Shown: positions 2,519 to 15,258 of the stretch, piece by piece
Layout of the letters: every line of letters begins with the position of its first letter
Position numbering within the stretch: the stretch's first letter is position 1
DNA from: a virus
Lineage: Duplodnaviria > Heunggongvirae > Uroviricota > Caudoviricetes
DNA: 41,360 nucleotides
Reading direction: 5' to 3' (one strand)
Virus record (IMG/VR): IMGVR_UViG_2778261164_000004
Location: 1 to 41,360 of that record
The notes under the pieces: generated by a model
The model's database searches: none
What the model saw: the letters and a program-made list of their open reading frames with translations, nothing else
Told to the model about the DNA's origin: nothing
Position numbers and translations under genes: made by a program

Positions 2519-2803
2519 TTATTCATTGCTGATATTCACCTTTATCGCGAACACCTTTACCGGTTTATCACCGAAGTGCGGATGTGTGATTGTCTTGATC
2601 TCATATCCGTCATACGGAACATCAATTCTGCGGCTGGAATCGTCGCGCTTCGGATATCCCTTTGTGATAATCAGGCGGTCATATTCCCGGAACATAATTC
2701 GCTTATTCCAGTAGTCATTACACAGGCGATACTCTTCCGTTTTCTCCCCGCGAATCATGGCATCGAAGTATTCACCTTTAACGGCAAGTTGCAGGTTAGC
2801 CAC
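2519..2803 (-). CDS. Small ASCH/DUF3850-like protein (about 94 aa from GTG start)
   Basis: AGGAGG RBS precedes GTG at 2803, which sits just after the stop of the upstream gene; motif LAVKGEYFDAMIRGEKTEEYR resembles ASCH-like domains (recalled, unverified). Confidence 0.5.
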   Translation of the reverse strand: MANLQLAVKGEYFDAMIRGEKTEEYRLCNDYWNKRIMFREYDRLIITKGYPKRDDSSRRIDVPYDGYEIKTITHPHFGDKPVKVFAIKVNISNE

Positions 2804-3323
2804 GGTTAACCTCCTGCTGCGGTGCTGCTGGCATTTCACTCCAGTGCGTAACTGAGTGCGGATCCGGATATTCGGTGCCATCATCCCAGCGATTGCCATT
2901 CCACATTGCAGACCACATCTCACCGTCTTCATACATGACAATTACCGGAATTAACTTATCCGGCATTCGATCACTACAGCTTATCCAACCATCCGTAGTT
3001 ACCGGAGAGTTGCCATTTACATCGAAGTTTGGCTCTGCGTCCTGAACCAGGAGGATGTAACCATTCTTGGCAGTATCAAGTTCTAACGCCTCGGTGACGG
3101 TGCCGAAATAGCGATTACCTAAATCCGCATCACAAGTGCTTACATCAATGGAAACCTCCATCCCTTCGATTAATTCTGGCAAGTTGTAAGTTTGGCTTAC
3201 AGGCTCGGCTTCCAGCGATGCCAGTGCAATCCGTGCCAGTTCCATTTGTTCGCCACGAGTAAGTCCGTTATCAAGCGGATTTTTAATGAATAATTCGATA
3301 CGTTCTTTAGTGATAGTGCTCAT
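2796..3323 (-). CDS. Phage protein with DUF551-like C-terminal region (175 aa)
   Basis: AAGGAG RBS before ATG at 3323 (internal to the longer track ORF); Trp/Pro-rich C-terminus typical of DUF551 phage proteins (recalled). Confidence 0.5.
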   Translation of the reverse strand: MSTITKERIELFIKNPLDNGLTRGEQMELARIALASLEAEPVSQTYNLPELIEGMEVSIDVSTCDADLGNRYFGTVTEALELDTAKNGYILLVQDAEPNFDVNGNSPVTTDGWISCSDRMPDKLIPVIVMYEDGEMWSAMWNGNRWDDGTEYPDPHSVTHWSEMPAAPQQEVNRG

Positions 3324-3324
3324 A

Positions 3325-3876
3325 TCACTCTCCTTTGATGCGAATGCCTGTTGCAATGCTGTTTATGATGCTGTCAGTGCATGGGGTAGAAAGCTGGGCA
3401 TCTCCAGCAATTTTCATGACCTCAACATCTGCATATCGAATACCGAGGTGTATCAGACCAGCTATGCCTGACTTAAGCCGAGCATTTTCCATAAATAGAA
3501 CTTTTGCCCGCCGTTTTTCTGCCTCAAGCTCAACGCGCAGCTTCCCTACCGTTAGCGCAATATCCTCGTTCTCCTGGTCGCGGCGTTTGATGTATTGCTG
3601 GTTTCTTTCCCGTTCATCCAGAAGCGCCAGCACAGTAGCCGGATTGGCTGCGGCGATGAATTCAGCATTGGCCTGCTGTTCTATTTGGAAATCTTCATCG
3701 AAACCGCTTTCTGGATGCGCTCCTTCAATTCTGCAAATGGGAATATATCCAGCAACTTCACGATGAATTAGCGCATCATCACCATCAAATCGGCCCTCTC
3801 CATATTCGAGCGACCACTCGCCACACGTTGCTTTTTCTGCCTTAGCACGCAGTGCCTGATAGTCAATCTTGCTCAC
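3325..3876 (-). CDS. Hypothetical coiled-coil early protein (183 aa from GTG start)
   Basis: AAGGGAG RBS precedes GTG at 3876; C-terminal half charged and heptad-like. Confidence 0.45.
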   Translation of the reverse strand: MSKIDYQALRAKAEKATCGEWSLEYGEGRFDGDDALIHREVAGYIPICRIEGAHPESGFDEDFQIEQQANAEFIAAANPATVLALLDERERNQQYIKRRDQENEDIALTVGKLRVELEAEKRRAKVLFMENARLKSGIAGLIHLGIRYADVEVMKIAGDAQLSTPCTDSIINSIATGIRIKGE

Positions 3877-4168
3877 TGGTTGTCTCCCTTGCTGGGCTTT
3901 CGAATGTATCAAACTCAAACAACTTAACCACGTCATCAAACAGGACATAATCGCCATCAGGATCTTCAGTCATGTCAGCGCCACAATCCTGACCGAACGA
4001 GTCACAACCATCCATATCAAGCTCGTATCGCTTCAGGTTTGCGATATTTGATAAATTCAGCGCCAGTACAGCCAGGTCATAAACCTCTTCGGCGGTATAC
4101 CCTGCGCCATGCCCATACATTTCAATGCGGGATATGATTTCTTCTACCCGTTGTTTTGTGATCGTCAT
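3863..4168 (-). CDS. Hypothetical acidic early protein (101 aa)
   Basis: GGGAGG RBS upstream; ATG overlaps the stop of the upstream gene (ATGA). Confidence 0.5.
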   Translation of the reverse strand: MTITKQRVEEIISRIEMYGHGAGYTAEEVYDLAVLALNLSNIANLKRYELDMDGCDSFGQDCGADMTEDPDGDYVLFDDVVKLFEFDTFESPARETTSEQD

Positions 4169-4671
4169 TTTTGCTCACCTCCCTGTTCTTCCAGAAAAAT
4201 ACGCATAGCCTCAAGCATCTCTTCGGTGTCATACGGAGACAGCTTGTCACGCAGGATGTGTTCAATGCTGTTAATGAACTTTCGGATTGCTTTGCGTTCA
4301 ATTTCAGTCAGGAAAGCATCGGTGGCTGACATATTTCCTGTTGCCTTCATGGCCTTCAAAATAACCAGAACGCCATCTTGCCCAACCAACTCGGAGATAA
4401 TCTCAGTGTTGTCGCCAACAACATCACAGAATGCCTGAACAGCTTTACGAGCAAGTGCATTCTCCGCCGCCAGCGCCGCGCACTTGGCCTCAAGGTTATC
4501 AATCGTGATTCCAGCAGAACGACACTCCCGCAACGCCGTTTCCAGTTTTGATTCAAGTTCACCGAACTTACGGACAAGATATTCAGCGTTTGTTTCGTTA
4601 ACCTTTAAATCACTTGGGATGCATTTACCTTTCAGAAAACCATCCATCTCAATTAGTGACATTTGTTTCAT
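4165..4671 (-). CDS. Hypothetical early protein (168 aa)
   Basis: ORF whose ATG overlaps the stop of the upstream small gene (ATGA coupling). Confidence 0.5.
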
Positions 4672-4832
4672 TTCTTCCCACTCCGCAACATCGCATTCAG
4701 ATATTTGTTTTGATTCACTGATGGAAAAGAATTTCTCTTAAGCAATTCCTCTCTCGATGGCATTGGCTTTACGCGTTGGCGAATAATCATTTCTGCCGGA
4801 AGAATGCCGGGATTGTATGCAAGCCCTCTCAT
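4668..4832 (-). CDS. Small hypothetical protein (54 aa), below the ORF-track size cutoff
   Basis: GGAG RBS 8 nt upstream of ATG at 4832; ATGA overlaps with both flanking genes; translation [54 protein letters not shown]. Confidence 0.4.
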
Positions 4833-5119
4833 GATTTACTCTCCACGAACTGGTCAATAGCCATGCTAAGTGACACACCTAAAGTCTCGATATGTTGCTG
4901 AATATCCTGTAGCGTCTGCGCCTGAGATAACAGGATTTCACGGTTGCATAACTCTTTAACCAGATGCTCAAACTTGCTGTAATAACCGATACGGCTTAGT
5001 GTTTCTTTCCCTGCATTCTCGCCTTCTTTGATAATTCCTCTTTCGCTAAGAATCAGATCGTGTTTTGTTCCGGTAATAACGTATTTTCCGAGGTCGATGT
5101 TTAGCTTCATTGTTTTCAT
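4829..5119 (-). CDS. Hypothetical early protein (96 aa from internal ATG)
   Basis: GAGGA RBS 7 nt upstream of ATG at 5119; the longer upstream extension has no RBS. Confidence 0.45.
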
Positions 5120-5129
5120 TGTTAATTCC

Positions 5130-5426
5130 TCAGTCATTACTGATAGCGCCATAGCGTGAGCGGTAATTACGCAGGCGCAGGTCGATATATTCAGGGAAGT
5201 GGGTATATGTGGCTTTGCGGAATGGTCGGATTGATGTCTGGTAAATTCGCTCGCGTTCTTCTTTCTCTGCAAGCCATATACAGTGGCGAAATTCCTTTTC
5301 CTCTTTCGTTTCCTGCGGTAGAGACATTATCCGGTCGTAGTTTTTTCTGAATTTATCCAGCACCTCCGATACGGAATTGCCGGAACATCGGCGTGGGTCA
5401 TCCTCACCATACAGAGGCGCTGGCAT
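5130..5426 (-). CDS. Hypothetical early protein (98 aa)
   Basis: AAGGA RBS upstream of ATG at 5426. Confidence 0.5.
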   Translation of the reverse strand: MPAPLYGEDDPRRCSGNSVSEVLDKFRKNYDRIMSLPQETKEEKEFRHCIWLAEKEERERIYQTSIRPFRKATYTHFPEYIDLRLRNYRSRYGAISND

Positions 5427-5449
5427 AATGGAATCCTTATTTTTCTATA

Positions 5450-5833
5450 TCAGAATGGGATGGAATCGTCGTATACAGGAGTGTTCTGCTGGTTACTACT
5501 TTGCTGCTGCGGGCCATTTCCTGAAGCTGTAAATCCAATCTTTGCATTCAGTAATTCAAGAGTAATTGATTGACCATTTTGCCCCTGATAAACATCAACC
5601 CTGATGTTTTCTCCGGTAATTTCCACAATGCCACCTTCAACAAGAACGCTACGGTAGTAATCCGCTTGCGCTCCTGGCTTGGCAAATACAACGGCGCTGT
5701 AGTTTGTCCATTCTTTCTTTTTTGTCTGGCGATCGTAATACTGAACGCCAGCACGGATGTTGAATCCGATATTTTCCCCGGCCTGAAACTCTCTTGCGGG
5801 TTTGTTTAGTCTTACAGTAATCGAGTGTGCCAT
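5450..5833 (-). CDS. SSB-like single-stranded DNA-binding protein (127 aa)
   Basis: C-terminus ...PVYDDSIPF resembles the acidic DDDIPF tail of bacterial SSB; Gly/Gln-rich linker; ATG at 5833 overlaps the Erf stop (TAATG); located in the recombination module. Confidence 0.55.
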   Translation of the reverse strand: MAHSITVRLNKPAREFQAGENIGFNIRAGVQYYDRQTKKKEWTNYSAVVFAKPGAQADYYRSVLVEGGIVEITGENIRVDVYQGQNGQSITLELLNAKIGFTASGNGPQQQSSNQQNTPVYDDSIPF

Positions 5834-6438
5834 TAAGCAGCCGCTCCTTCTAATTCGTCTCGTCTTATGTTGTAAACGTCCTGCGCTTTGTGCTGCTCCG
5901 GTGTGCCTTCGAGCATCTTCCACGCTTTGGCGAACGCCTGTTTAAGCTCTTCCACGGTGTTTTTCTGCATTGCTGCGTCAGTGAATGCTTTTAGAACCTG
6001 TTCAGGTGTAAGTGATGGTTTTGATTGCTTTGCTGCTGCGTTCTGCTGATGTTTATGCTCGTCTGTATCTGCATCTTTCGCATCATCAATGCCGAACAAA
6101 CCATTGAGGCAATACTTGCGTGCATAAGAGCTTGTAGCTCCAGTAACTTGTGCAGAATCCATTCCTTTCTTGCTTTCTTCCTCTCGTGCAAGAGCGGTTG
6201 CCGTATGACTGTTTTCGCCATCGGTAATAGTTGCCGTGGCTTTCACATAATACCGATCACCAATCAACACAACTTCATCGCTGATTGATAAAAACAGGCC
6301 ATTCAGTAGCGGCTTAACGCCTTCAAGAATATCTTCGCAGCTTCTGTATTTATATTTACCGAATGAGTTGTATTGATTCTTTGGCGCGTTCAGATTCTCC
6401 TGAATAGCTGCCAGCCTTGCGTAAAATTCTTTGCTCAT
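5833..6438 (-). CDS. erf: Erf-family single-strand annealing recombinase
   Basis: MSKEFYARLAAIQENLNAPKNQYNSFGKYKYRSCEDILEGVKPLL... closely resembles recalled P22 Erf; start chosen at the MSKEFY methionine. Confidence 0.8.
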   Translation of the reverse strand: MSKEFYARLAAIQENLNAPKNQYNSFGKYKYRSCEDILEGVKPLLNGLFLSISDEVVLIGDRYYVKATATITDGENSHTATALAREEESKKGMDSAQVTGATSSYARKYCLNGLFGIDDAKDADTDEHKHQQNAAAKQSKPSLTPEQVLKAFTDAAMQKNTVEELKQAFAKAWKMLEGTPEQHKAQDVYNIRRDELEGAAA

Positions 6439-6448
6439 ATGATTGTTC

Positions 6449-6619
6449 TCAGAATGGACATGGCCCAAGGAAATAACGCTGATTTAATACTTCTACTCGT
6501 GACAAGTTAAGGCATACCCGCATTCCTTCGCGGTCGCCATTATGGCGATACCAGAGAGCTTTCTGCGTGTACATGCGTCTCTGTAACTTGCTCTCCTTCA
6601 CTGTGGTTGCAAGTGACAT
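6449..6619 (-). CDS. Small ORF upstream of erf (56 aa), Arf-position candidate
   Basis: AAGGAG RBS 6 nt upstream of ATG at 6619; stop TGA 10 nt before erf ATG; overlaps an alternative 52-aa ORF (6540-6698) in another frame, so the call is ambiguous. Confidence 0.3.
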   Translation of the reverse strand: MSLATTVKESKLQRRMYTQKALWYRHNGDREGMRVCLNLSRVEVLNQRYFLGPCPF

Positions 6620-6694
6620 GAATATCTCCTTCGTTACCGATTAATTCTTTCATCTGACGAATGAATTCTTCGTCTGACCAGTTATCTGTAAAAC

Positions 6695-6847
6695 TCATTT
6701 CCTGCGATACCACGGAATGTTGATCGCTGATTTCATCGCTTTATTTGCTTCAAGCCACATTTTGGAATCACCAATAAATCTGGCTATTACTGCTTTGTTT
6801 TGTGCTGCACGAAGCATCTGGTGATTGATGGCTATTTCATTGCGCAT
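6695..6847 (-). CDS. Kil-like small protein (50 aa), candidate cell-division inhibitor
   Basis: GGAGG RBS before ATG at 6847; segment IARFIGDSKMWLEA resembles my recollection of lambda Kil (IATFIGDEKMFREA); below track cutoff. Confidence 0.4.
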   Translation of the reverse strand: MRNEIAINHQMLRAAQNKAVIARFIGDSKMWLEANKAMKSAINIPWYRRK

Positions 6848-6966
6848 AACGCCTCCAGTTGTTTCTTTGCTGCTCTGATTAATTGTTTAACTCGGCGTGA
6901 TAATTCAGATTCGTGCGGGTAGAAAGCGGACATGACGCCGCTACCCGCGAGCTGAAAGTGCATCAT
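6832..6966 (-). CDS. Small hypothetical protein (44 aa)
   Basis: Strong AAGGAG RBS before ATGATG at 6966; internal start of a longer track ORF that lacks an RBS. Confidence 0.4.
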   Translation of the reverse strand: MMHFQLAGSGVMSAFYPHESELSRRVKQLIRAAKKQLEALCAMK

Positions 6967-7029
6967 GGGTAACTCCTTATATTTGATTGCATAACGAAAA
7001 CGCCTCGAGTGAAGCGTTATTGGTATGCA

Positions 7030-7056
7030 TATAAAAAGGCCCTCACACTGGAGGGC
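7030..7056 (-). terminator. Rho-independent terminator inside the early-left (PL) operon
   Basis: Minus-strand RNA GCCCUC-CAGUGU-GAGGGC followed by CUUUUUAU; stems at 7039-7044 and 7051-7056. Confidence 0.5.
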
Positions 7057-7192
7057 AAAGAAGATTTCCAATAATCAGAACAAGTCGGCTCCTGTTTAGT
7101 TACGAGCGATATTGCTCCGTGTATTCACTCGTTGGAATGAATACACAGTGCAGTGTTTATTCTGTTGTTTGTGCCAAAAATAAAGGCCACCA

Positions 7193-7444
7193 TCAGGCAG
7201 CCTTGTTGTAAATGTTGCAGGTATCAAGTAAGTAATTAGATGGAGCGCCATAAATTATGAATTCATCGTTTGTCGGGTCCATCTCCATCTCTTGGCCTAT
7301 TGCCATTCTTGCGTCAGTGTCATCAGCGGCGAAGCATAAAACAGCCCACGCACCCATTGTTTTAAAAAGAACTGCAATTGGCTGTGGTTTTACTGAATTT
7401 GCGTTAGCGCGAAAATCACAAATCGCACTTTCATGAAATTCCAT
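7193..7444 (-). CDS. Hypothetical early protein (83 aa)
   Basis: AGGTG RBS upstream of ATG at 7444; no family recognised. Confidence 0.45.
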   Translation of the reverse strand: MEFHESAICDFRANANSVKPQPIAVLFKTMGAWAVLCFAADDTDARMAIGQEMEMDPTNDEFIIYGAPSNYLLDTCNIYNKAA

Positions 7445-7506
7445 ATATCACCTAAAATAAGTGGTTTGCTGCCAAAACAATGAACCATCCGGAAATTCCA
7501 GATAGT

Positions 7507-7731
7507 TCATAATTCACTCTTCAATACTTCCAACTTACTAATCGCCGATAGATATCCGCGCTGATAGGGCATCATCATTCCTTCGAGCTTGCCACTTCTT
7601 AACTCCTCCCTGAGCAATTGTATTGCTTGATCAATAACCTCTGCCTTAGCGTCCTTTATGGCTTGCTTGCGGGGCTTTGCTTTCTGCTTTGGCAGATTTC
7701 TCAAGCATGATGGAATGTATGTCTGATTCAT
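7507..7731 (-). CDS. Hypothetical early protein (74 aa) immediately after the N-like gene
   Basis: GAGG RBS; ATG at 7731 follows the N-like stop by 3 nt. Confidence 0.45.
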   Translation of the reverse strand: MNQTYIPSCLRNLPKQKAKPRKQAIKDAKAEVIDQAIQLLREELRSGKLEGMMMPYQRGYLSAISKLEVLKSEL

Positions 7732-7734
7732 CAC

Positions 7735-8007
7735 TTACCTCGCCGTCAGTTGTTTTGATTTCCGGTAGCCTGCCGCGTAAATGGCTACGTTTGGCAGGCA
7801 AATACTTCCACTGCATTCATCTGCCTTCTTGCAGCGAAGGCTTCCGAGTGATGCTGCTTTATCTGCTCTGACGCAACCAGAGAGCTTTAGCGCAATCTTT
7901 CGCGCCAATCGCTGTTCTTGCATTGCCTGTTCACGTTGAGCCTGTCTGCGTGCTCTGCGGCGATTTCTGGCGTTATCGTCAGCCAGATATGTAATGACTA
8001 CTGTCAT
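7735..8007 (-). CDS. N-like transcription antiterminator candidate (90 aa) with arginine-rich motif
   Basis: First gene downstream of PL and nutL; contains NARNRRRARRQAQREQA, resembling the arginine-rich RNA-binding motif of lambdoid N proteins; GGAGG RBS 5 nt upstream of ATG. Confidence 0.5.
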   Translation of the reverse strand: MTVVITYLADDNARNRRRARRQAQREQAMQEQRLARKIALKLSGCVRADKAASLGSLRCKKADECSGSICLPNVAIYAAGYRKSKQLTAR

Positions 8008-8365
8008 GTTGACCTCCGATGATTGACTTTGGCGGTGACGCGCCGGGTGCTTATCTTCCGGTTGCCGTCGTGCAGCTGCACTTCACGTCACCCCAAAGCC
8101 AACTACTCTTTGACTCACACTCTCGCAGTGAGCGCGCTCATGCCCTTGAGTCTCTGTCGCTTATTAGCCGCTGATAACCGGTGCGCGTCTGGCATTCGCG
8201 CTGCCTTTCCGGAGCATGTTCCCTTATTTACCCTCACATCGGTCTGCTAAACCTGCTCGCCATTACGCGACTCGGGGCAGCATCATTACTGCTGCATTGC
8301 CTTTCGGCTGCGGTCTAACCGCGTTAGTGCACCATTACGGCACCTCCTGTTTGGTTAAACTCAGT

Positions 8366-8406
8366 TCCCGCATTTCGGCGGGACAATCCCATCAATGTTA
8401 AAGAGC
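8366..8406 (-). promoter_or_regulatory. nutL site (boxA GCUCUUUAACA + boxB hairpin)
   Basis: Minus-strand boxA at 8396-8406 and hairpin UCCCGC-CGAAAU-GCGGGA at 8366-8383; the same boxB sequence recurs on the plus strand after cro (nutR). Confidence 0.6.
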
Positions 8407-8452
8407 CTGCCAATCTGTTCCGTTTGGCTACCAGCGTCCTGCTGATGGCTAA

Positions 8453-8495
8453 AGAATACTGTAGGTATTTTATTGTGTAAATACCCAAGGTATTT
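8453..8495 (-). promoter_or_regulatory. OL operators and PL promoter
   Basis: Two palindromic operators AATAC-N5-GTATT (8455-8469) and AAATAC-N5-GTATTT (8479-8495) of the same family as the OR sites; minus-strand -35 TTTACA and -10 TATTCT with 17-bp spacer overlap them. Confidence 0.55.
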
Positions 8496-8625
8496 ATTTT
8501 TGGTGAAATAATGATAAGCAAATGAATACAAAGGATATTTATTTTTTCGTCGTCTGCTTGTTCAGTGCTTTTTATGCGGGATATGTGAAGTTGATCCCGA
8601 TAGCTATTGCTGCCGGGATTATGGG

Positions 8626-8993
8626 TTAGTCAGCGAAGGTTAAGACGAGAATTACCTTAATGATGTCTGCTACAACAGACACGGCCATAGATAAACCAAA
8701 GACGATCCAAGCCATAGAGATGTCTTCACTACCATCGTATAGAGTTCCGTAATCACTGGTGTAAGGCGTAAATGTCGCGCCTTGATACAATAGGTATAAG
8801 CTTGATCCATAGAGGATAAATGCAGATATCCCTTGTATTGCTATGATCACCAGAATCATGAAACGAGCTGATCTATGCGCCCAAGCCTGGCTTATTTTTT
8901 CTGATAGAGATTTCGCAAAAAAGCATGCGCTAAGCCGTAAATTGTTGAGATTGCCAACATCCCCAAAAAGCTTGCTATAGCGGTTCCAACCAT
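8626..8993 (-). CDS. Repressor-linked three-TM membrane protein; reading frame interrupted at a homopolymer tract (frameshift, pseudogene or slippage site)
   Basis: AAGGGGG RBS and ATG at 8993 open a hydrophobic 33-codon frame (MVGTAIASFLGMLAISTIYGLAHAF...) ending at TAA 8892-8894; the two-TM C-terminal part continues in another frame to 8626; frames rejoin if a coding-strand T6 run (plus 8917-8922) were T7. Confidence 0.45.
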
Positions 8994-9011
8994 AAGCGCC
9001 CCCTTGCGTGA

Positions 9012-9728
9012 TCAAACCAGTCTGAGTTTTGTCTCAATTGCAACGCCTATAATCTTGCAGTTTCCATTGATTGGCACGAGAGGCCATGCAGGATTAAGTC
9101 CCTTGAGGTATTTATTTCCGCCGTCGATTATCAGCTTCTTGAATGTTGCTTCGTTAGAGTCAGAAAGTTTTGCTATGACCAAGCTGCCGTTGATCGCCTC
9201 CCTTCCGGTATCGAAAAGAACGAATGTTCCCTCTGGAATGCTTAACCCAACCGGTGCCGTCATTGAATCACCTTCCACTTTAAGCCAGAACGCATTACCT
9301 TGAATATGCGCGTCAGACTCAAGCCAAACATCTATGTCTTTAATGGTGTATGGTTCGCATGCTTCACACCACGAGCCAGCCTGGATACTGCTTAACACCG
9401 GATACCTCTTTCCTGCTCTGTATTCTCCTGCATACCTTACGTTGGCATCGCTCTTAAGGCTTTCTGCCTGTTCTGCAACCTTGGCAGCAATTGACTGGCT
9501 AAAATCAGCAATTGAGACTTGCAACAGTCGTGCAAAACCAGATGCAACCTCAACGTTTAGCGCGTTTCTGCCATTAAGATAATGCCCTACCGCTCCTTGG
9601 GTGATACCCAGTTCATCAGCGATTGAGTATTGGGTTATTCCCAATTCTTTCTTTTTTGACTCATACAAAGCCTTAAGCCGCTTAGCGTCTTCTAGCTGTT
9701 CTGTCGTCAGTGATTTTTTATTTTCCAT
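9012..9728 (-). CDS. cI: Lambda CI-like prophage repressor (HTH + S24 LexA-like autopeptidase domain)
   Basis: N-terminus ...LTTEQLEDAKRLKALYESKKKELGITQ closely parallels lambda CI; C-terminal domain has the GDSM serine and AKL lysine motifs of S24 peptidases; divergent from cro. Confidence 0.9.
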   Translation of the reverse strand: MENKKSLTTEQLEDAKRLKALYESKKKELGITQYSIADELGITQGAVGHYLNGRNALNVEVASGFARLLQVSIADFSQSIAAKVAEQAESLKSDANVRYAGEYRAGKRYPVLSSIQAGSWCEACEPYTIKDIDVWLESDAHIQGNAFWLKVEGDSMTAPVGLSIPEGTFVLFDTGREAINGSLVIAKLSDSNEATFKKLIIDGGNKYLKGLNPAWPLVPINGNCKIIGVAIETKLRLV

Positions 9729-9763
9729 AGCTTAATTCTAATAGCTAAGGTACTTAAACTAAA

Positions 9764-9805
9764 AATACCCTGAGTATTGATTGCTTTGAATACCTGTAGT
9801 ATTCT
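9764..9805. promoter_or_regulatory. OR operators with PR promoter
   Basis: Palindromes AATAC-CCTGA-GTATT (9764-9778) and GAATAC-CTGTA-GTATTC (9788-9804); PR -35 TTGATT (9777-9782), 17-bp spacer, -10 TATTCT (9800-9805) overlapping the second operator. Confidence 0.6.
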
Positions 9806-9834
9806 TTGTTCATGGTTAATAACGGAGAGTGCAT

Positions 9835-10029
9835 ATGATTCGAATGACACTTGCCGATTACGCCAAAATCCATGGACAGGCTAAAGCAGCCAGTGACTTT
9901 GGTGTAATCCAGTGCGCTATCAGCAAGGCCATTCTGGCAGGCCGTAACATCATGGTTACGGTAAAGCCTGATGGCAGTGTGATTGGAGAGGAAGTTCGTC
10001 CTTTCCCAAGCAACAAGAAAAACAAATAG
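9835..10029 (+). CDS. cro: Cro repressor (lambda Cro-like, 64 aa)
   Basis: [62 protein letters not shown] aligns along its length with recalled lambda Cro; GGAG RBS; ATG at 9835 preferred over the upstream GTG. Confidence 0.85.
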
Positions 10030-10036
10030 TAACACC

Positions 10037-10079
10037 GCTCTTTAACAGTCATGGTCCTCATTCCCGCCGAAATGCGGGA
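10037..10079 (+). promoter_or_regulatory. nutR site (boxA CGCTCTTTAACA + boxB hairpin)
   Basis: boxA at 10037-10048; hairpin TCCCGC-CGAAAT-GCGGGA at 10062-10079, identical to the nutL boxB. Confidence 0.65.
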
Positions 10080-10137
10080 ATACAACGCGCATAATTTGAT
10101 GCGCATAACTTCTTATTTGTTAAGGAAATACTTACAT

Positions 10138-10416
10138 ATGCAACTTACAAGTACTCGCAAGAAAGCGAATGCAATTACAAGCAACATCCTGAATCGAATT
10201 GCTGTACGTGGTCAGCGAAAGGTTGCCGACGCGTTAGGGATTAATGAATCGCAAATTTCGCGATGGAAAGATAGCTTCATCCCCAAAATGGGAATGCTTC
10301 TGGCTGTTCTTGAATGGGGTGTTGAAGACGAGGAGTTGGCGGAACTGGCTAAGAAAGTAGCCAGAATGCTGACAAAAGAAAAAGCCCCGAAGAACGGCGA
10401 ATTCTTCGAGGCCTGA
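10138..10416 (+). CDS. cII: CII-like transcriptional activator (92 aa)
   Basis: ...SQISRWKDSFIPKMGMLLAVLEWGVEDEELAELAKKVA... parallels lambda CII (SQISRWKRDWIPKFSMLLAVLEWGV); internal ATG chosen because the longer ORF would overlap nutR. Confidence 0.8.
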   Translation: MQLTSTRKKANAITSNILNRIAVRGQRKVADALGINESQISRWKDSFIPKMGMLLAVLEWGVEDEELAELAKKVARMLTKEKAPKNGEFFEA

Positions 10417-10450
10417 TGTAGAAAGACTGGATCAATCCACAGGAGTAATT

Positions 10451-10612
10451 ATGACAAAACGTCGTAAGAAATACCAGGAAAAAGAAGAGATTCGACACCC
10501 TGATTCACCTGAGGGATTAGTGGTAGCCGCAGCAAATAACAGGGCGTTCGCAGAGCGCCTTGTTGGTGTTTACAGACTAGCCAAAGCAGGAGTGAAACAT
10601 GGGCGTCGTTAA
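10451..10612 (+). CDS. Small basic hypothetical protein (53 aa)
   Basis: AGGAG RBS 5 nt upstream of ATG at 10451; overlaps the start of the O-like gene by 14 nt; below track cutoff. Confidence 0.35.
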   Translation: MTKRRKKYQEKEEIRHPDSPEGLVVAAANNRAFAERLVGVYRLAKAGVKHGRR

Positions 10613-11489
10613 GTTAGCTGATTACAGGCATAACCCTGTACAACATCAGGAGGCATCCAGTATGGGGTATGTCTCTATACACCGCCAGTTTATGGACAGC
10701 AGGCTCTATAAGGACTCTCAGGCAGTACATCTTTGGCTTCACTTAATCCTCAAGGCTAATCACGAATCTACTGTCGTCAATACGGATATCGGTCCGATAA
10801 CTGTTGATCGCGGTCAGATGATAACTGGACGCCCGTCGCTGGTCAGAGAAACATTCATCCCCGACAACAAAGTTCGGAGCTTATTACGGACTTTTGAGTC
10901 GAAAGGGATGCTTAATATTTGCTCGATGGGGAAGAAATTTAGCCTGTTTACAATCGTTAAATATGACGATTTTCAGGCAAAAAATTGTCCAACGGTTGTC
11001 CAACGGTTGTCCAACGCAAACACCAGTAATGGCGCGGCTCTCAGCGGAGATTGTCCAACGGTTGTCCAACGGTTGTCCATAAACAATAATATAAATAATA
11101 TCTCTAATACTGACGTATTAGAGAGTGCCACAGCAGACAAAAAGTCTGACAAGAAAAAACCTTCCGTTAGCTGTCAGGATGTTGTCGATGCTTACCACGA
11201 AATCCTTCCTGAAGCGCCAAGAATCCGCGCACTGAATGACAAGCGTAAAAACCAGATCCGAACGTTCTGGCGCAAAGCCGGAGTGATAACCCGCCAGCTT
11301 GACGGGCATGGGTTCACGATGCAGGACTGGAGAAATTATTTGAGCTACGTAGGCGAAAATTGCCGATGGATGTTCGAAGAACGCCCAAACCATCAACGCG
11401 GAACCGTCTGGCACAAAAAGGGATTTGATTTCCTGCTTAACGACAATACCTACCTGAAAGTTCGTGAGGGTGAACACGATGACCGATAA
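10599..11489 (+). CDS. Replication initiation protein (O / gp18-like) containing the origin iterons
   Basis: AGGAG RBS; immediately precedes the helicase gene; contains two clusters of 11-bp direct repeats followed by an AT-rich tract, as in lambdoid O genes. Confidence 0.7.
   Translation: MGVVKLADYRHNPVQHQEASSMGYVSIHRQFMDSRLYKDSQAVHLWLHLILKANHESTVVNTDIGPITVDRGQMITGRPSLVRETFIPDNKVRSLLRTFESKGMLNICSMGKKFSLFTIVKYDDFQAKNCPTVVQRLSNANTSNGAALSGDCPTVVQRLSINNNINNISNTDVLESATADKKSDKKKPSVSCQDVVDAYHEILPEAPRIRALNDKRKNQIRTFWRKAGVITRQLDGHGFTMQDWRNYLSYVGENCRWMFEERPNHQRGTVWHKKGFDFLLNDNTYLKVREGEHDDR
10985..11083. repeat. Origin-of-replication iterons (2 x 3 copies of TTGTCCAACGG) with adjacent AT-rich region
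   Basis: Tandem 11-bp units at 10985-11017 and 11051-11083 (third copy of each set degenerate); AT-rich stretch 11084-11125. Confidence 0.6.
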
Positions 11490-12915
11490 TTTTTATGCGC
11501 CGCCCCATAGCATCGAGGCAGAGCAGGCGGTGATTGGTGGATTGCTTCTGGATGATGACAGCAGTGAGCGCGTCCAGAAAGTTCTGGCGATGCTGAAGCC
11601 CGATTCATTTTACAGCCGACCACACAAAATCCTTTTCGAAGAAATAACCAGAATGCACTGGGAGCAAAAGCCAGTAGATGGCCTGACGCTTTTCGATGAA
11701 CTGGAGCGTAAATCGTTAACGGTGTCTGTTGGCGGTTTTGCTTATATCGCTGAGATCGCAAAGAACACGCCAAGCGCAGCAAACATCGTTGCCTATGCAA
11801 TGCAGGTTCGTGAAACCGCAATGGAACGCTACGCCATCAACCGCATGACTGAAGCGACGGAATTGCTCTATTCCCGCAACGGAATGACTGCGACGCAGAA
11901 GTACGAAGCTATTCAGTCGATTTTCACGCAACTGACAGACCATGCAAAAACCGGATCGCGTCGCGGCCTTCGTTCATTTGGTGAGGTCATGGAAGACTGG
12001 GTTAGCGACCTTGAGAAGAGATTTGACCCATCAGGAGAACAACGGGGAATGAGCACAGGGATCCCATCGTTGGACAGGATGCTGTCACCGAAAGGTCTGG
12101 TGAAAGGCTCTCTGTTTGTCATTGGCGCTCGCCCTAAGATGGGGAAAACGACGCTATACAGCCAGATGGCAATCAACTGCGCAGTGCATGAGAAAAAGCC
12201 CGCTCTGATGTTCAGCCTTGAAATGCCAGGTGATCAGATACTGGAAAAACTGGTAGGGCAGAAGTCTGGTGTTAACCCGAATATTTTTTACCTTCCGGCG
12301 ACAAATGACGCTGATGACGGCTATCAGGGTGATTACGATGGTGACTTCAACAGGGCGATCGAAACAGCCAATCGCTTGAGTGAAATCGACCTGCTTTACA
12401 TCGACGACACGCCGGGATTATCTCTGGCTCAAATCGTCAGCGAAAGCCGTCGAATCAAGCGAGAAAAAGGATGTGTTGGCATGATTCTGGTCGATTACCT
12501 GACACTAATGACCGCTGAGAAGGCCGATCGCAACGACCTTGCCTACGGCATGATCACCAAAGGACTGAAGAACCTTGCCAAAGAGCTTGATTGCGTTGTT
12601 GTGCTTCTGACACAGCTTAACCGCGCATTGGAAAGCCGAACCAATAAACGCCCATTACCAAGTGACTCGCGCGATACAGGGCAGATTGAACAGGATTGCG
12701 ATTATTGGGTGGGGATCCATCGTGAAGGTGCTTTTGATGACAGTGTTCCACCTGGTGAAACCGAACTAATCCTTCGTCTCAATCGTCATGGCAATACCGG
12801 CACGGTGTATTGCATTCAGGCAAATGGCGCTATTTATGACACAGACCAACAGTCTGCTGAAATGCGCCGCCGTGAACGCGAGGAACCGCAATCCAAGAAG
12901 AAAGGAGGATTCTGA
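11479..12915 (+). CDS. DnaB-family replicative helicase (P22 gene 12-like)
   Basis: DnaB N-terminal domain pattern (SIEAEQAVIGGLLLD), Walker A GARPKMGKT and RecA-like core; GAGGG RBS; start taken at the MTDNFYAPP methionine. Confidence 0.9.
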   Translation: MTDNFYAPPHSIEAEQAVIGGLLLDDDSSERVQKVLAMLKPDSFYSRPHKILFEEITRMHWEQKPVDGLTLFDELERKSLTVSVGGFAYIAEIAKNTPSAANIVAYAMQVRETAMERYAINRMTEATELLYSRNGMTATQKYEAIQSIFTQLTDHAKTGSRRGLRSFGEVMEDWVSDLEKRFDPSGEQRGMSTGIPSLDRMLSPKGLVKGSLFVIGARPKMGKTTLYSQMAINCAVHEKKPALMFSLEMPGDQILEKLVGQKSGVNPNIFYLPATNDADDGYQGDYDGDFNRAIETANRLSEIDLLYIDDTPGLSLAQIVSESRRIKREKGCVGMILVDYLTLMTAEKADRNDLAYGMITKGLKNLAKELDCVVVLLTQLNRALESRTNKRPLPSDSRDTGQIEQDCDYWVGIHREGAFDDSVPPGETELILRLNRHGNTGTVYCIQANGAIYDTDQQSAEMRRREREEPQSKKKGGF

Positions 12916-12990
12916 TGACCATCTACATCACTGAGCTTGTAACAGGCCTGCTGGTAATCGCAGGCCTTTTTATTTGGGGAGAGTGAAGTC

Positions 12991-13173
12991 ATGAATCTGG
13001 ACGAGCAAGATGCACAAACTATTAGCTCATACATAAGGGCATCAAGACCAGATTACAAAGGTCCGGTGTTCGTAGATTTATCTCGCCTTGAAGAGATTTA
13101 CATGTGGGAAGCAAGGCTACTTACGCATCTTTTTATTCGCAAGATGACTAGCAACATTACAAAACCAATGTAA
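12991..13173 (+). CDS. Hypothetical nin-region protein (60 aa)
   Basis: ORF with GGGGAGAG RBS upstream. Confidence 0.4.
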   Translation: MNLDEQDAQTISSYIRASRPDYKGPVFVDLSRLEEIYMWEARLLTHLFIRKMTSNITKPM

Positions 13174-13187
13174 CTGGAGAGGTGAAT

Positions 13188-13403
13188 ATGAGCACACTCG
13201 CAGACCTTATTCATGCCGATATGGCGGAAGATGGAGCAAGGCGTAATAGGTACTGGAAATCATCAAGCCTTCCAGTTTGTGAAAGATTCAACCACAGGCC
13301 AAAACCAAAACGTAGCCGACGAGACAAGGTGTTGAAAAAACTCATGCAAATAAACATGGCTGGTTTTGTCAGATTCGTGAGTGAAACGACTAACGGGGAT
13401 TGA
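13188..13403 (+). CDS. Hypothetical nin-region protein (71 aa)
   Basis: GGAGAGG RBS 6 nt upstream of ATG at 13188. Confidence 0.4.
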   Translation: MSTLADLIHADMAEDGARRNRYWKSSSLPVCERFNHRPKPKRSRRDKVLKKLMQINMAGFVRFVSETTNGD

Positions 13404-13404
13404 T

Positions 13405-13671
13405 ATGGACGAATCAAGAAAGCAGTTTGAAGAATGGTTTGAAAATTACACCGGATGTGATCCTAAAAATAAAATATACGCCAATATGGTTGAGATGTAT
13501 TGGCAAGCGTGGCAGGCATCGCGAGCAGCTATCGAGATTGAGTGTCCTGGAAAAAGAGAGCGTGAGGCATTTTCTACCGATTTCGAGGATGGGGTCACAT
13601 TTGGTTATAACGACGCAATTAGTGAATGCGAAGGACGGATTCGCGCTGCTGGAGTCAAAGTGAAGGAGTAA
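13405..13671 (+). CDS. Hypothetical nin-region protein (88 aa)
   Basis: ORF tightly packed between neighbours; internal ATG at 13405 chosen. Confidence 0.45.
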   Translation: MDESRKQFEEWFENYTGCDPKNKIYANMVEMYWQAWQASRAAIEIECPGKREREAFSTDFEDGVTFGYNDAISECEGRIRAAGVKVKE

Positions 13672-13673
13672 CG

Positions 13674-14084
13674 ATGAAGCAAACAATTTTCCTCCGAACT
13701 AAGCAACAACAGCAAGCCGCAATCAACGCCATCCTCGCAACACCACTCGATAAAGACAAGCCAGTCACCATCCGCATTACTGACTACAAGCGCAACCTTG
13801 ACCAGAACGCAAAATTTCACGTGATGCTGGCGGATATCGCTCGTCAGGCTCAATGGTGCGGCAAATGGTTAAAACCGGAACAATGGAAGGTTTTGTTGAT
13901 TAGCGGTCATGCAGTGGCAACAAACCTGGAAGCTGATGTTTTGCCCGGGCTTGAAGGCGAATACGTCAACATTCGCGAAAGCAGCGCGCAGATGAGCGTG
14001 AAGCGCATGGCAAGTCTGATCGAGTACACAACAGCCTGGGCTATTGGTCAGGGTGTCAGATTTACCGACAGGAGGTACGAATGA
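13674..14084 (+). CDS. ninB: NinB (Orf-family recombination mediator)
   Basis: AAGGAG RBS; size about 136 aa and sequence pattern resemble recalled lambda NinB; located in the nin region. Confidence 0.7.
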
Positions 14085-14257
14085 GACGACAGCGACGAAG
14101 TTTCACCGACATCATCTGCGAAAACTGCAAATACCTTCCAACGAAACGCTCCAGAAATAAACGCAAGCCAATCCCAAAAGAATCTGACGTAAAAACCTTC
14201 AACTACACGGCTCACCTGTGGGATATCCGGTGGCTAAGACATCGTGCGAGGAAATGA
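14081..14257 (+). CDS. ninE: NinE (58 aa)
   Basis: [52 protein letters not shown]... matches recalled lambda NinE; ATGA overlap with ninB stop. Confidence 0.6.
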
Positions 14258-14601
14258 CAATGGATTATTCACAGTTAAGTGATTTTGAAATTAACAGAAT
14301 GGTAGGAGACATAATTTTTAAAGGCCTTTGGGCATGTAAACCGGAAACGTCAGGGAATAACACCAACAAATGGTATTACGGAAATGCTGATACAACTTTT
14401 GAGCCATTAAACCCTTTACCTGACTACTGCAATGATCCGAGTGCCTCATGGCCGATTATTGAGAAACACAGGATTTCTATCTTAGACCAGTTAACTGAAT
14501 GGTGTGTGGATGCAAATGGCGTAAGCCCAATATTTGATACCAGACCTCTCCGCGCCGCCATGATTGTCTTTCTCCTGATGCAGGACGCTAATAATGCTTA
14601 G
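14254..14601 (+). CDS. nin-region protein (NinX-position, 115 aa)
   Basis: ATGA-coupled to ninE stop; position corresponds to ninX in the P22-type nin order (recalled). Confidence 0.45.
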
Positions 14602-14770
14602 CCCATCACAATCCCTTCAATACCAGAAAGAAAGCGTCGAGCGGGCTTTAACGTGCGCTAATTGCGGTCAGAAGTTGCATGTGCTGGAAGTTCACGTGTG
14701 CTCCGATTGCTGCGCAGAACTGATGAGCGATCCGAATAGCTCAATGTACGAGGAAGAAGACGATGAATGA
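14594..14770 (+). CDS. ninF: NinF (58 aa, Cys-rich)
   Basis: [50 protein letters not shown]... matches recalled lambda NinF. Confidence 0.6.
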
Positions 14771-14975
14771 TTACCTGAAATGGTATCTCTGCCACCGCTG
14801 GTTAATTAAGTATGCTGTAAAAGACTGGATGACAGCGGATGCCAACAAGCTTAAGCAAAGAAAAGACTATTACTACGCCAGAATGAAGGAAAACTACTGC
14901 TCAATTCGCACTCGCATATTTATTAAAAAAGACCTTCAGTCAATTCTTCAGTTGCGAGGGAAGGTAAATGGCTAA
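14763..14975 (+). CDS. Hypothetical nin-region protein (70 aa)
   Basis: ORF overlapping the ninF stop; no family recognised. Confidence 0.4.
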   Translation: MNDYLKWYLCHRWLIKYAVKDWMTADANKLKQRKDYYYARMKENYCSIRTRIFIKKDLQSILQLRGKVNG

Positions 14976-15258
14976 CCTACGCAAAGAAGCGCGCGGCAGA
15001 GAATGCCAGGTACGTATTTACGACGTATGCAATGGCAACCCTGAAACTACAGTTCTGGCACATTACCGGATGGCTGGAATTTGCGGAACGGGAATGAAGC
15101 CTGACGACCTGATCGGCGCATGGGCTTGTAGCGCGTGTCACGATGAAATCGACCGACGCACCCATAATCTCGACAACAAAGACGCCAGACTTTACCACCT
15201 CGAAGGCGTGATCAGGACGCAGGCGATACTGCTGAAGGAGGGAAAGATTAAGCCATGA
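14968..15258 (+). CDS. YbcO-like (DUF1364) Cys-rich putative nuclease
   Basis: RGRECQVRIYDVCNGNPETTVLAHYRM...CSACHDEIDRRTH closely parallels recalled E. coli DLP12 YbcO. Confidence 0.6.
   Translation: MANLRKEARGRECQVRIYDVCNGNPETTVLAHYRMAGICGTGMKPDDLIGAWACSACHDEIDRRTHNLDNKDARLYHLEGVIRTQAILLKEGKIKP

Follow-up and report, generated by a model that had tools for sequence, protein, structure and literature searches.

Lambda RexB has four TM helices, and the Sie2009 gene adjoins the repressor gene in the lysogeny module. The interval between cI and N is a hotspot, occupied by rexAB in lambda and by bstA in BTP1, and these genes are expressed together with the repressor (PMC8585504). DNA delivery is blocked by P22 SieA (PMC10883804). 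Here, we analyzed the gene that occupies the cI-N interval in a prophage of the E. coli assembly GCA_002463775.1, using a stretch of 41,360 nucleotides (IMG/VR record IMGVR_UViG_2778261164_000004; hereafter the window). Its counterpart in phage HK620, hkaS (protein AAK28867.1; phrog_6534), occupies the same slot, 17-18 nt after cI and before tIMM, OL, pL and N. The two DNA sequences were 97% identical, and the HK620 protein and the repaired product of the window agreed at approximately 97% over 120 aligned residues, with an end-to-end profile match. However, HK620 and nearly all other phages and prophages with this gene possess intact copies, whereas a deletion in codon 26 truncates the protein of the window to 33 aa.

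The gene is already catalogued as a hypothetical phage gene, and the finding is ordinary in this respect. No paper mentioning hkaS was found in the open-access literature, where all matches to "HKAS" were fungal herbarium codes, and the HK620 content of the P22 SieA paper concerned ejection proteins only.

The hkaS locus and its relatives

The features of the locus are listed in Table 1. An earlier note, made from the letters of the window alone, had described a strong RBS directly after the cI stop, an ATG opening a 33-codon hydrophobic frame, and the remainder of the protein in another frame; this order was confirmed on the minus strand and all coordinates hold.

Table 1. Features of the immunity operon around hkaS in the window
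Feature	Positions	Strand	Remarks
cI repressor gene	9012-9728	-	238 aa, HTH_3 and Peptidase_S24; TGA 9014-9012; upstream gene of the immunity operon
129-aa TTG-start ORF	8626-9015	-	gene-caller product of the T6 allele; NCBI WP_244577271.1 (PGAP); stop TAA 8628-8626
Shine-Dalgarno AAGGGGG of hkaS	8999-9005	-	5 nt before ATG 8993-8991
Truncated hkaS frame	8892-8993	-	33-aa product MVGTAIASFLGMLAISTIYGLAHAFLRNLYQKK; TAA 8894-8892
T6 run, frameshift site	8917-8922	-	one base lost; codons F25-I/L26
Rest of hkaS	8626-8916	-	codons 27-122: cytoplasmic loop, TM2, periplasmic loop, TM3, stop (topology predicted); frame offset from that of the start by one base
77-aa ORF	8626-8859	-	start at internal Met45, ATG 8859; TM2 and TM3; no recognisable SD
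Hairpin	8594-8619	-	directly 3' of the hkaS stop; no U tract; the immunity transcript ends here or nearby
OL3-OL2-OL1 operators and pL	8453-8545	-	-35 TTTACA 8481-8476, -10 TATTCT 8458-8453; boundary of the immunity operon

Judged by sequence, positions 8626-8993 of the minus strand are a homologue of HK620 hkaS in the form of a disrupted allele. When one base was added at the T run, the frames joined into a 122-aa protein that differed from the intact E. coli 980-2 protein only at residue 26, was 96-100% identical to phage and prophage copies, and matched the phrog_6534 profile over positions 1-122 of 122 (E=1.1e-78). Chance would not account for such a reading frame, given that hundreds of relatives carry it as a single ORF. 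The first 25 residues of the 33-aa product were those of the 980-2 protein, i.e., codons 1-25 (TM1) of the truncated frame are authentic and are followed by eight out-of-frame codons and the TAA. The translation of the rest of the gene equalled residues 27-122 of the same protein, and its DNA showed just two differences from the 980-2 copy, both synonymous.

The surroundings were also close to those of known phages. The immunity region was 97-99% identical to the regions of HK620, HK140, mEpX2 and Stx2c phages, in which a 369-nt hkaS is annotated 17-18 nt after cI (18 nt in the window). The cI gene of the window was 97-99% identical to HK620-type cI, its Pfam domains being seen on the identical locus L006. 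A purine-rich SD with equal spacing was present in other hkaS copies (AAGGGG in HK620, AAAGGA in Hafnia-like, CAAGGA in Salmonella and CAGGGA in locus L017). In the Hafnia-like copy the downstream hairpin persists, a G.U pair having become A-U, and Salmonella and L017 have different hairpins at this place; in the HK620 annotation, tIMM lies just downstream of the hairpin position. The OL/pL elements were placed by mapping the HK620 annotation through the alignment. An Rfam scan of positions 7500-10500 gave zero matches, and neither a promoter-like nor a terminator-like site was found between cI and hkaS. We also considered a 35-aa ORF on the plus strand (8522-8629) as a convergent small toxin or partner. 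It was rejected: the ORF is frameshifted in E. coli 980-2 and carries a stop in Hafnia-like loci, and in Salmonella conservation is limited to the first 8 codons, a stretch of OL3 operator DNA.

Among relatives, hkaS was located 17-20 nt 3' of one cI lineage and always before OL/pL and N. HK620-type cI and hkaS were each detected in 146 complete E. coli genomes, at 147 places each, so that approximately 2.7% (146/5426) of complete E. coli genomes carry hkaS; Stx-converting phages carry it too. Divergent 122-aa homologues were found in Salmonella, Hafnia-like and other contigs, all between cI and N. The gene co-diverges with its cI lineage at a protein-level rate that is three to four times faster. 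A phmmer search of 1.84 billion representatives added a single true relative, at 59% identity, together with one 44-aa fragment and two repetitive giant sequences that were spurious. The HkaS family is very narrow, and a deeper alignment was out of reach. The dN/dS ratio between E. coli and Hafnia-like hkaS was 0.15 for the complete gene, with 0.27 in codons 1-33 and 0.12 in codons 34-122, which indicates that hkaS is under purifying selection over its whole length, including the junction.

Nature and origin of the T6 allele

Alignment revealed that intact relatives have TTTT-A-TT, or rarely TTTT-C-TT, at the break, and that the window lacks this A or C. The site reads GCTTTTATTGCG in intact relatives and GCTTTTCTTGCG in HK140. 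The T6 run is the product of a deletion and not a prior homopolymer. The earlier note was thus correct that the gene is broken by a frameshift, which the alignment resolved as a one-base deletion with a repaired product of 122 aa. It had further suggested that T7 in place of T6 would rejoin the frames into a protein of approximately 120 aa; one added base does give 122 aa, but the natural intact state is not T7. A single uninterrupted 122-codon ORF was absent from the window, where the 1-nt deletion in codon 26 leads to a stop after 33 codons. In contrast, each of the 96 IMG/VR loci that could be evaluated has an ATG-started ORF for a protein of 122 aa, and at the site itself these loci have A (93) or C (3), with no T and no deletion. 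In all 60 complete E. coli genomes sampled, hkaS spanned 369 nt, versus 368 nt in the window. Neither a T6 nor a T7 allele was detected in any of the 146 complete E. coli genomes carrying the gene, 16 GenBank phages or 96 IMG/VR loci, and no complete genome among the 146 was identical to the window across the site. Comparison of the T tract among homologous prophages, proposed in the earlier note, therefore yielded TTTT[A/C]TT in the intact copies and neither T6 nor T7.

These observations bear on the suggestion that hkaS is phase-variable, being switched on and off by slipped-strand mispairing that alters the length of the T tract. A seventh T would bring the gene back into frame (I26F), and for an exclusion function in this slot the ability to switch on and off could be of use. 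Nevertheless, the natural ON state (TTTTATT or TTTTCTT) contains no homopolymer, T7 was absent from the complete E. coli genomes, IMG/VR and the JGI metagenomes searched, and T6 was confined to one rare haplotype. Moreover, tracts that phase-vary at useful rates usually have 8 or more bases, and the run of six is shorter. We consider switching of this kind to have almost no chance of being correct.

The exact 129-aa ORF of the window occurred on only 4 contigs, versus hundreds for the 122-aa forms, and these contigs belonged to the assemblies GCA_002463775.1, GCA_054852655.1 and GCA_047881425.1. Locus L006 was 100% identical to positions 2626-15015 of the window. The immunity blocks of loci L007 and L008 differed from that of the window by 2 and 6 mismatches, respectively, without gaps and all outside cI and hkaS, whereas their replication and recombination modules differed from those of the window. 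All T6 occurrences thus lay on one near-identical, rare immunity haplotype, which has entered no fewer than three different prophage backbones by recombination. Because the identical allele was present in three assemblies with different prophage backbones, T6 appears to be a real inherited allele and not a sequencing error; on its distribution, it is a rare, genuine inherited mutation of single origin.

The earlier note had also raised a sequencing error; in this opposite view, the true sequence is TTTTATT with an intact hkaS, from which a base was dropped beside the T run during sequencing or assembly. A single-base indel in a T-rich stretch is indeed a typical error context, and the gene shows no further decay, with just the two synonymous differences from its intact relative. 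However, T6 was found in three separately deposited assemblies with differing flanking modules; a systematic error would be expected to scatter across haplotypes instead of staying within a single one, and the 146 complete genomes, 16 phages and 96 IMG/VR loci all have a correct reading of the site. We thus regard an error in the window as improbable, and a recurrent systematic assembly error behind T6 is likewise unlikely.

Coding consequence and probable dispensability

The lost base is the A in TTT-ATT, the pair of codons 25 and 26. Translation from ATG 8993 would then end after 33 residues and yield TM1 only, and the remaining 96 codons have no SD of their own. We infer that the allele is null or, failing that, strongly hypomorphic, and consider this reading, with a real deletion of single origin, likely. 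Among the options offered by the earlier note (inactivated, phase-variable or expressed by frameshifting), inactivation is therefore the appropriate choice, given the single-base loss and the stop after 33 residues. As cI lies upstream and is unaffected by the deletion, immunity should be intact.

The allele might still have a residual output: some full-length protein may come from -1 slippage on U_UUU_UUG, or TM1 and TM2-3 could be produced as separate fragments that then assemble.

With respect to slippage, the deletion itself created an in-phase slippery heptamer in the zero frame (GCU UUU UUG, 8923-8915), -1 is the direction needed, and the product of tandem -1 slippage (...AFLAKS...) equals the natural HK140 sequence at residue 26. 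Leaky or programmed -1 frameshifting could thus turn the allele into a low-expression hypomorph. On the other hand, the downstream 81 nt folded no better than shuffled sequences (MFE z-score +1.23, with 176 of 200 shuffles at least as stable), and no SD-like element was present upstream. E. coli heptamers without stimulators reach approximately 2-10 times a background of approximately 0.055%, and U_UU.U_UU.G is missing from the motifs listed above 0.10%, which counts against frameshifting here (PMC4066793). The slippery site was absent from every intact or divergent homologue, each of which has one uninterrupted ORF; Hafnia-like copies have ACTTTCATTGCT at this position and Salmonella copies ACAAAGATTTCT. 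This suggests that nothing has been selected for the slippery site. The proposal of the earlier note that the protein is expressed by frameshifting therefore found no backing in homologues or in a stimulatory RNA structure downstream. That T6 is kept as a low-expression hypomorph through such slippage is less likely than the reading of HkaS as a single-protein exclusion or abortive-infection factor (see below), and we rate frameshifting as highly improbable.

It is also conceivable that the fragments are genuine products, either as two separately translated proteins, one a TM peptide of 33 aa and the other a two-TM protein of 77 aa, or as the 129-aa TTG-start protein. The 77-aa ORF is annotated in phage HF4s and in some E. 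coli records, the 129-aa ORF is listed by NCBI as WP_244577271.1, and split membrane proteins are sometimes able to assemble. However, essentially all relatives have a single 122-aa ORF with purifying selection across the junction, no SD precedes ATG 8859 or TTG 9015, the 129-aa form replaces TM1 by an out-of-frame, non-hydrophobic sequence, and the split forms come from different, unrelated lesions (T6 and A5). We give functional fragments hardly any credence. The 129-aa ORF is probably not a real product, because it lacks an SD and its first 31 residues are out of frame. Two findings that would have refuted its reading were specified in the earlier note: T6 homologues with a conserved separate 33-aa ORF, of which none was found, and a conserved long-frame product with a non-ATG start, for which the only candidate, the 129-aa ORF, is a rare annotation artefact. 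WP_244577271.1 is thus a gene-caller misannotation that deserves to be flagged as a frameshifted hkaS.

Inactivation of hkaS appears to have occurred elsewhere as well. In phage HF4s, an otherwise complete P22-like phage, hkaS (QOI58144.1, annotated as the 77-aa ORF) is likewise frameshifted, although by an independent lesion, A6 to A5, which lies 17 nt downstream of the deletion site of the window and within a true homopolymer. Other truncated forms (77-aa, 44-aa and others) were observed on further contigs. Since independent null alleles exist, for instance in the viable phage HF4s, hkaS is, as far as these alleles indicate, dispensable for phage growth.

Predicted topology, candidate function and known systems

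The hydropathy profile of repaired HkaS had three peaks, with 4 K/R in loop 1 and 0 K/R plus 4 D/E in loop 2, and an AlphaFold2 model (pLDDT 91, pTM 0.77) placed helices at 2-29, 31-38, 41-74 and 89-121. HkaS is thus predicted to be a 122-aa three-TM inner-membrane protein, much as the earlier note had envisaged (about 120 aa, three TM). Based on hydropathy and charge bias, its N-terminus is predicted to be out and its C-terminus in, with a positively charged, cytoplasmic loop 1 and a strongly conserved, acidic, periplasmic loop 2 (YLLYQGATFxPYxSxYG). Class I holins have three TM helices in N-out/C-in orientation; for HkaS, hydropathy and charge bias give this orientation as a prediction only. 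Other class I holin traits were absent: HkaS ends (...VLTFAD) right after TM3 without a charged C-terminal tail, and hkaS lies in the immunity operon and not beside lysis genes.

Fold searches, in line with the HHpred/Foldseek check of the fused protein recommended in the earlier note, returned only generic helical bundles. Searches of Pfam, NCBIfam and PADLOC with the repaired protein gave nothing above threshold; the sub-threshold matches, Cation_ATPase_C (19 bits versus a 27-bit cutoff) and TssN, were noise. Among PDB sequences, a profile search found no match at E<=10, and no SieA, SieB, Imm or PADLOC family model produced a match passing threshold.

Because hkaS has its own SD and is separated from cI by neither promoter nor terminator, it would share the pRM/pRE transcript of cI in the lysogen, with this transcript ending before OL/pL. 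HkaS may thus be a dispensable, lysogen-expressed accessory protein. As a tentative proposal, drawn from genomic position, predicted expression and membrane topology only, its most likely role would be membrane-level superinfection exclusion, i.e., a DNA-entry block like those of P22 SieA, HK97 gp15 and Sie2009. It is rather doubtful, but conceivable, that HkaS is an undescribed single-protein membrane exclusion or abortive-infection factor locked to one cI lineage, with the motif YLLYQGATFxPYxSxYG, which was invariant among HkaS copies, and the buried Q54, D110 and K113 as its working parts. If HkaS is an exclusion factor, the prophage of the window would have lost this function.

The window allele itself, a rare loss-of-function copy of a catalogued hypothetical gene, carries little weight. 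The wider point is modest: hkaS is strongly conserved, strictly linked to its repressor, presumably expressed in lysogens and situated in the same slot as rexAB and bstA. The T6 and HF4s A5 null alleles provide convenient isogenic comparisons and, if the exclusion reading is true, would be ready-made loss-of-function controls.

The earlier note had placed the gene in the lysogen-expressed slot of rexB/sieB-type genes and proposed it as a candidate exclusion factor. The slot, between cI and N as for rexAB and bstA, was borne out, but no sequence tie was found to RexB or to any exclusion or defence family in Pfam or PADLOC. BTP1 BstA shares with HkaS a gene position directly 3' of cI, and its expression in lysogens is high, an illustration that defence cargo occurs in this slot (PMC8585504); however, it is a large, soluble Abi protein that associates with DNA and comes with an aba self-immunity element, whereas HkaS is a small membrane protein without a PADLOC match. 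Compared with lambda rexA/rexB, hkaS shares the slot between cI and OL/pL and the presumed co-transcription with the repressor, and RexB is also a small polytopic inner-membrane protein (PMC8585504). HkaS differs from RexB in size (122 aa and three TM versus 144 aa) and has no sequence relationship to it (hhalign probability 0.3%; no Pfam RexB match at E<=1), and hkaS has no rexA-like partner, with no other conserved ORF before OL/pL. Finally, although HkaS has no detectable sequence or fold similarity to P22 SieA, HK97 gp15 or lactococcal Sie2009 (Pfam, PADLOC and fold searches), it resembles them as a small, presumably prophage-expressed inner-membrane protein, and those three proteins act alone.

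The hkaS gene and its one-base deletion in the window

Comparison with relatives identifies the broken gene behind cI as a copy of hkaS/phrog_6534, a gene that is already in the catalogues; the allele is real but rare, and probably null. Over 601 bases around the frameshift site, the window shares 97-99% identity with the immunity regions of phages in 16 GenBank records and of prophages carried by 146 of the 5426 complete E. coli genomes; the matching phages included HK620, HK630, HK140, mEpX2, HF4s, two Traversvirus Stx phages and two Stx2c phages. The hkaS of HK620 (annotated order cro - OR - cI - hkaS - tIMM - OL3/2/1 - pL - nutL - N) is a 369-nt gene that starts 18 nt after cI and is annotated as of unknown function, and 369-nt copies were also found in HK140, phi296 and E. 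coli 980-2. The window looks like a complete P22-like prophage and comes from E. coli assembly GCA_002463775.1, and contig NTPK01000001.1 (locus L006) was 100% identical to its positions 2626-15015. With one base restored, the window protein equalled that of E. coli 980-2 apart from residue 26, and it matched all 122 profile positions of phrog_6534 (function unknown; E=1e-78). Thus, the earlier claim of a broken gene was confirmed as a 1-base frameshift relative to intact hkaS, and reading-frame analysis of the window agreed with the coordinates and arithmetic proposed for the locus.

Features at and around the hkaS locus (window coordinates)
Feature	Position	Strand	Remarks
cI	9728-9012	-	stop TGA 9014-9012
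SD-type AAGGGGG	9005-8999	-	ahead of ATG 8993; strong SD
33-codon hydrophobic frame MVGTAIASFLGMLAISTIYGLAHAFLRNLYQKK	ATG 8993 to TAA 8894-8892	-	
T6 run	8922-8917	-	
Second open frame	TTG 9015 to TAA 8628-8626, internal ATG 8859	-	two further hydrophobic segments
Hairpin AUCCCGG.AGC-AAUA-GCU.UCGGGAU	8594-8619	-	stable; 7 nt after hkaS stop; no U tract
35-aa hydrophobic ORF MNTKDIYFFVVCLFSAFYAGYVKLIPIAIAAGIMG	8522-8629	+	convergent with hkaS, 4-nt overlap
Three OL operators and pL	8453-8545		
cII ORF	10051-10416	+	121 aa open from upstream ATG

In the alignment, intact copies read GCT TTT ATT GCG (A-F-I-A) at the site, or GCT TTT CTT GCG (A-F-L-A) in HK140, and the window reads GCTTTTTTGCG. 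It differs from them by one base, so the A or C of codon 26 has been lost, and the T6 run is the product of this deletion, not a shortened T7 tract. The T7 state suggested previously as the repair was never seen in the data searched; intact relatives have A or C inside the T stretch. Among 100 IMG/VR contigs matched by their flanks, 96 were evaluable; the codon-26 base was A in 93 and C in three, with no T and no deletion, and all 96 encoded an ATG-started 122-aa protein. Across 8880-8960, an exact match to the window was absent from all 146 complete E. coli genomes, and among the matches listed each was one base longer; the hkaS span was 369 nt in a spread sample of 60 of these genomes, versus 368 nt in the window. 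A T6- or T7-specific pattern had no match in IMG/VR or JGI metagenome contigs. The lesion is evolutionarily recent, because two synonymous changes are all that separates the part downstream of it from the intact copy in 980-2.

Translation from the strong SD and ATG 8993 would terminate after 33 residues, comprising TM1 and eight foreign residues. cI lies upstream and is unaffected, and nothing follows hkaS in the operon before the hairpin and OL/pL, so that loss of HkaS would be the only expected effect. No SD precedes ATG 8859 or TTG 9015 in the window sequence. The NCBI pipeline places a 129-aa TTG-start hypothetical protein on 8626-9015 of the minus strand (WP_244577271.1), not called a pseudogene, whose TTG overlaps the cI stop (TTGA). 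This PGAP ORF, in which out-of-frame polar sequence takes the place of TM1, is best treated as an artefact of annotation.

Frameshifting, phase variation and sequencing error

By chance, the deletion produced a U_UUU_UUG heptamer that is in phase, and tandem -1 slippage on it would yield ...AFLAKS..., as found in HK140. No RNA structure follows the heptamer, however (z=+1.23), and the site is not T-rich in divergent copies (ACTTTCATTGCT; ACAAAGATTTCT), and hence is not a conserved slippery site. E. coli heptamers without stimulators shift at roughly 0.1-0.5%, and U_UUU_UUG is missing from the motifs listed above 0.10% (PMC4066793). A programmed frameshift was therefore not supported, and this route should give no more than a trace of full-length protein. 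Phase variation at the T tract fared no better, since the ON state is no homopolymer and T7 was absent from the data searched. The possibility of two separate genes is contradicted by the single ORF universal among relatives.

The exact 129-aa ORF of the window (P0005) corresponds to WP_244577271.1 and three further accessions in the protein collection, and was located on four contigs, which belong to assemblies GCA_002463775.1, GCA_054852655.1 and GCA_047881425.1. The T6 allele has different neighbours in three loci: DnaB/ERF and a 90-aa N in L006, Rep_O/Rad52/SSB and a 99-aa N-position gene in L007, and DnaB/Ral/ERF in L008. The immunity block is shared by all three, with no gaps and only 2 (L007) and 6 (L008) mismatches, all outside cI and hkaS. 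The T6 allele is thus a single haplotype that arose once and was moved by recombination into different backbones, which points to an inherited real allele, since errors would be scattered over haplotypes. Sequencing error, raised in the earlier note, is very improbable.

Conservation of HkaS and variation at the locus

Homologues whose identity was 82% (Hafnia-like), 60% (Salmonella) or 54-59% were all exactly 122 aa, and the divergent ones were in all cases encoded 18-20 nt after a same-lineage cI and before N. The dN/dS between E. coli and Hafnia-like hkaS was 0.15 overall (0.27 for codons 1-33, 0.12 for codons 34-122); thus, both halves are constrained in one frame, and the conserved product is a single 122-aa protein. 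cI and hkaS were strictly linked (each in 146 complete E. coli genomes, at 147 places) and co-diverged, with cI/HkaS identities of 96/82, 86/60 and 84/54%, HkaS changing faster. The family is very narrow, as phmmer, run exhaustively over 1.84 billion representatives, turned up just one more true relative.

Other null alleles were also found. HF4s, an isolated, plaque-forming, P22-like phage, carries an independent frameshift: 17 nt downstream, at the counterpart of window 8895-8900, the A6 run is shortened to A5, and only a 77-aa remnant is annotated (L005, 1741-1974). This remnant protein occurred on about 15 further contigs (P0029, P0032). Forms of 77 and 44 aa, 111-aa forms that start at Met12 and doubly shifted forms were each limited to a few other contigs; the common 122-aa forms were present on hundreds (363, 171, 80, 53, 51, 48...). 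Thus, hkaS is dispensable for phage propagation but normally maintained, as is typical of an accessory gene that benefits the lysogen. Four 111-aa proteins (P0030, P0033, P0035, P0039; about 18 contigs) start at Met12, which implies a lesion within the first 11 codons; its site may be the T5-6/G3-4 run AGCTTTTTTGGG (window ~8961-8972). In-frame loop-1 deletions (~window 8870-8905) were seen in P0004 (114 aa, -8 residues) and P0007 (111 aa, -11 residues; ATCAG microhomology at the flanks, by eye); being on single metagenome contigs, they may be rare variants or assembly artefacts.

The hairpin is kept in the Hafnia-like copy with a G.U to A-U change, and unrelated hairpins take its position in Salmonella and L017; it may stabilise the 3' end or belong to the terminator of the immunity transcript, and HK620 annotates tIMM slightly downstream. 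When the window was compared with L009, L014 and L017, the OL operators and pL were almost invariant between the E. coli, Hafnia-like and Salmonella versions of the region, across which HkaS falls to 54-82% identity, the spacer after hkaS is unalignable and cI retains 84-96%. These phages therefore probably share immunity specificity. The convergent 35-aa ORF, an annotated gene in HF4s, is probably spurious: it is frameshifted in E. coli 980-2 and interrupted in Hafnia-like loci, and nothing of it survives in Salmonella beyond the first 8 codons, which are the OL3 operator. The cII start is annotated inconsistently across records, with a 92-aa form in HK620 and in gene calls on the identical locus, and the long form in HK140 and phi296.

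Possible function of HkaS

The cI-to-N interval is a recognised hotspot of prophage-expressed cargo, whose genes share the highly active repressor promoter, and includes bstA of BTP1 (PMC8585504). The proposed rex slot held, as hkaS occupies the interval that contains rexAB on the lambda map. So did the proposed three-TM protein: repaired HkaS had three hydropathy peaks (residues ~3-26, ~45-70 and ~94-120). Loop 1 (AKSLSEKISQAWAHRSAR) contains four K/R and loop 2 (QGATFTPYTSDYGTLYDGSEDIS) zero K/R and four D/E; loop charges and hydropathy predict an N-out, C-in topology. An AlphaFold2 model, built from five sequences only, was confident (pLDDT 91, pTM 0.77); it has helices at 2-29, 31-38, 41-74 and 89-121, and loop 2 forms a small hairpin. 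Among the invariant positions are Q54, D110 and K113, which lie within helices, and the block Y67-LLYQGATF-75, where TM2 ends on the periplasmic side.

HkaS is therefore predicted to be a small polytopic inner-membrane protein, alone in its slot, with a conserved periplasmic loop. By sequence, it belonged to no named exclusion family. We tentatively consider that it might be a single-protein, DNA-entry-blocking exclusion factor, although this is somewhat short of an even chance; it may instead act as a membrane-depolarising Abi effector or serve as a conversion factor for host physiology. The remaining value lies in this uncharacterised, repressor-locked family and its natural knock-outs. HK97 gp15 and Sie2009 are single-protein DNA-entry blockers. 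P22 SieA is another (PMC10883804), and in working terms HkaS is nearest to such blockers.
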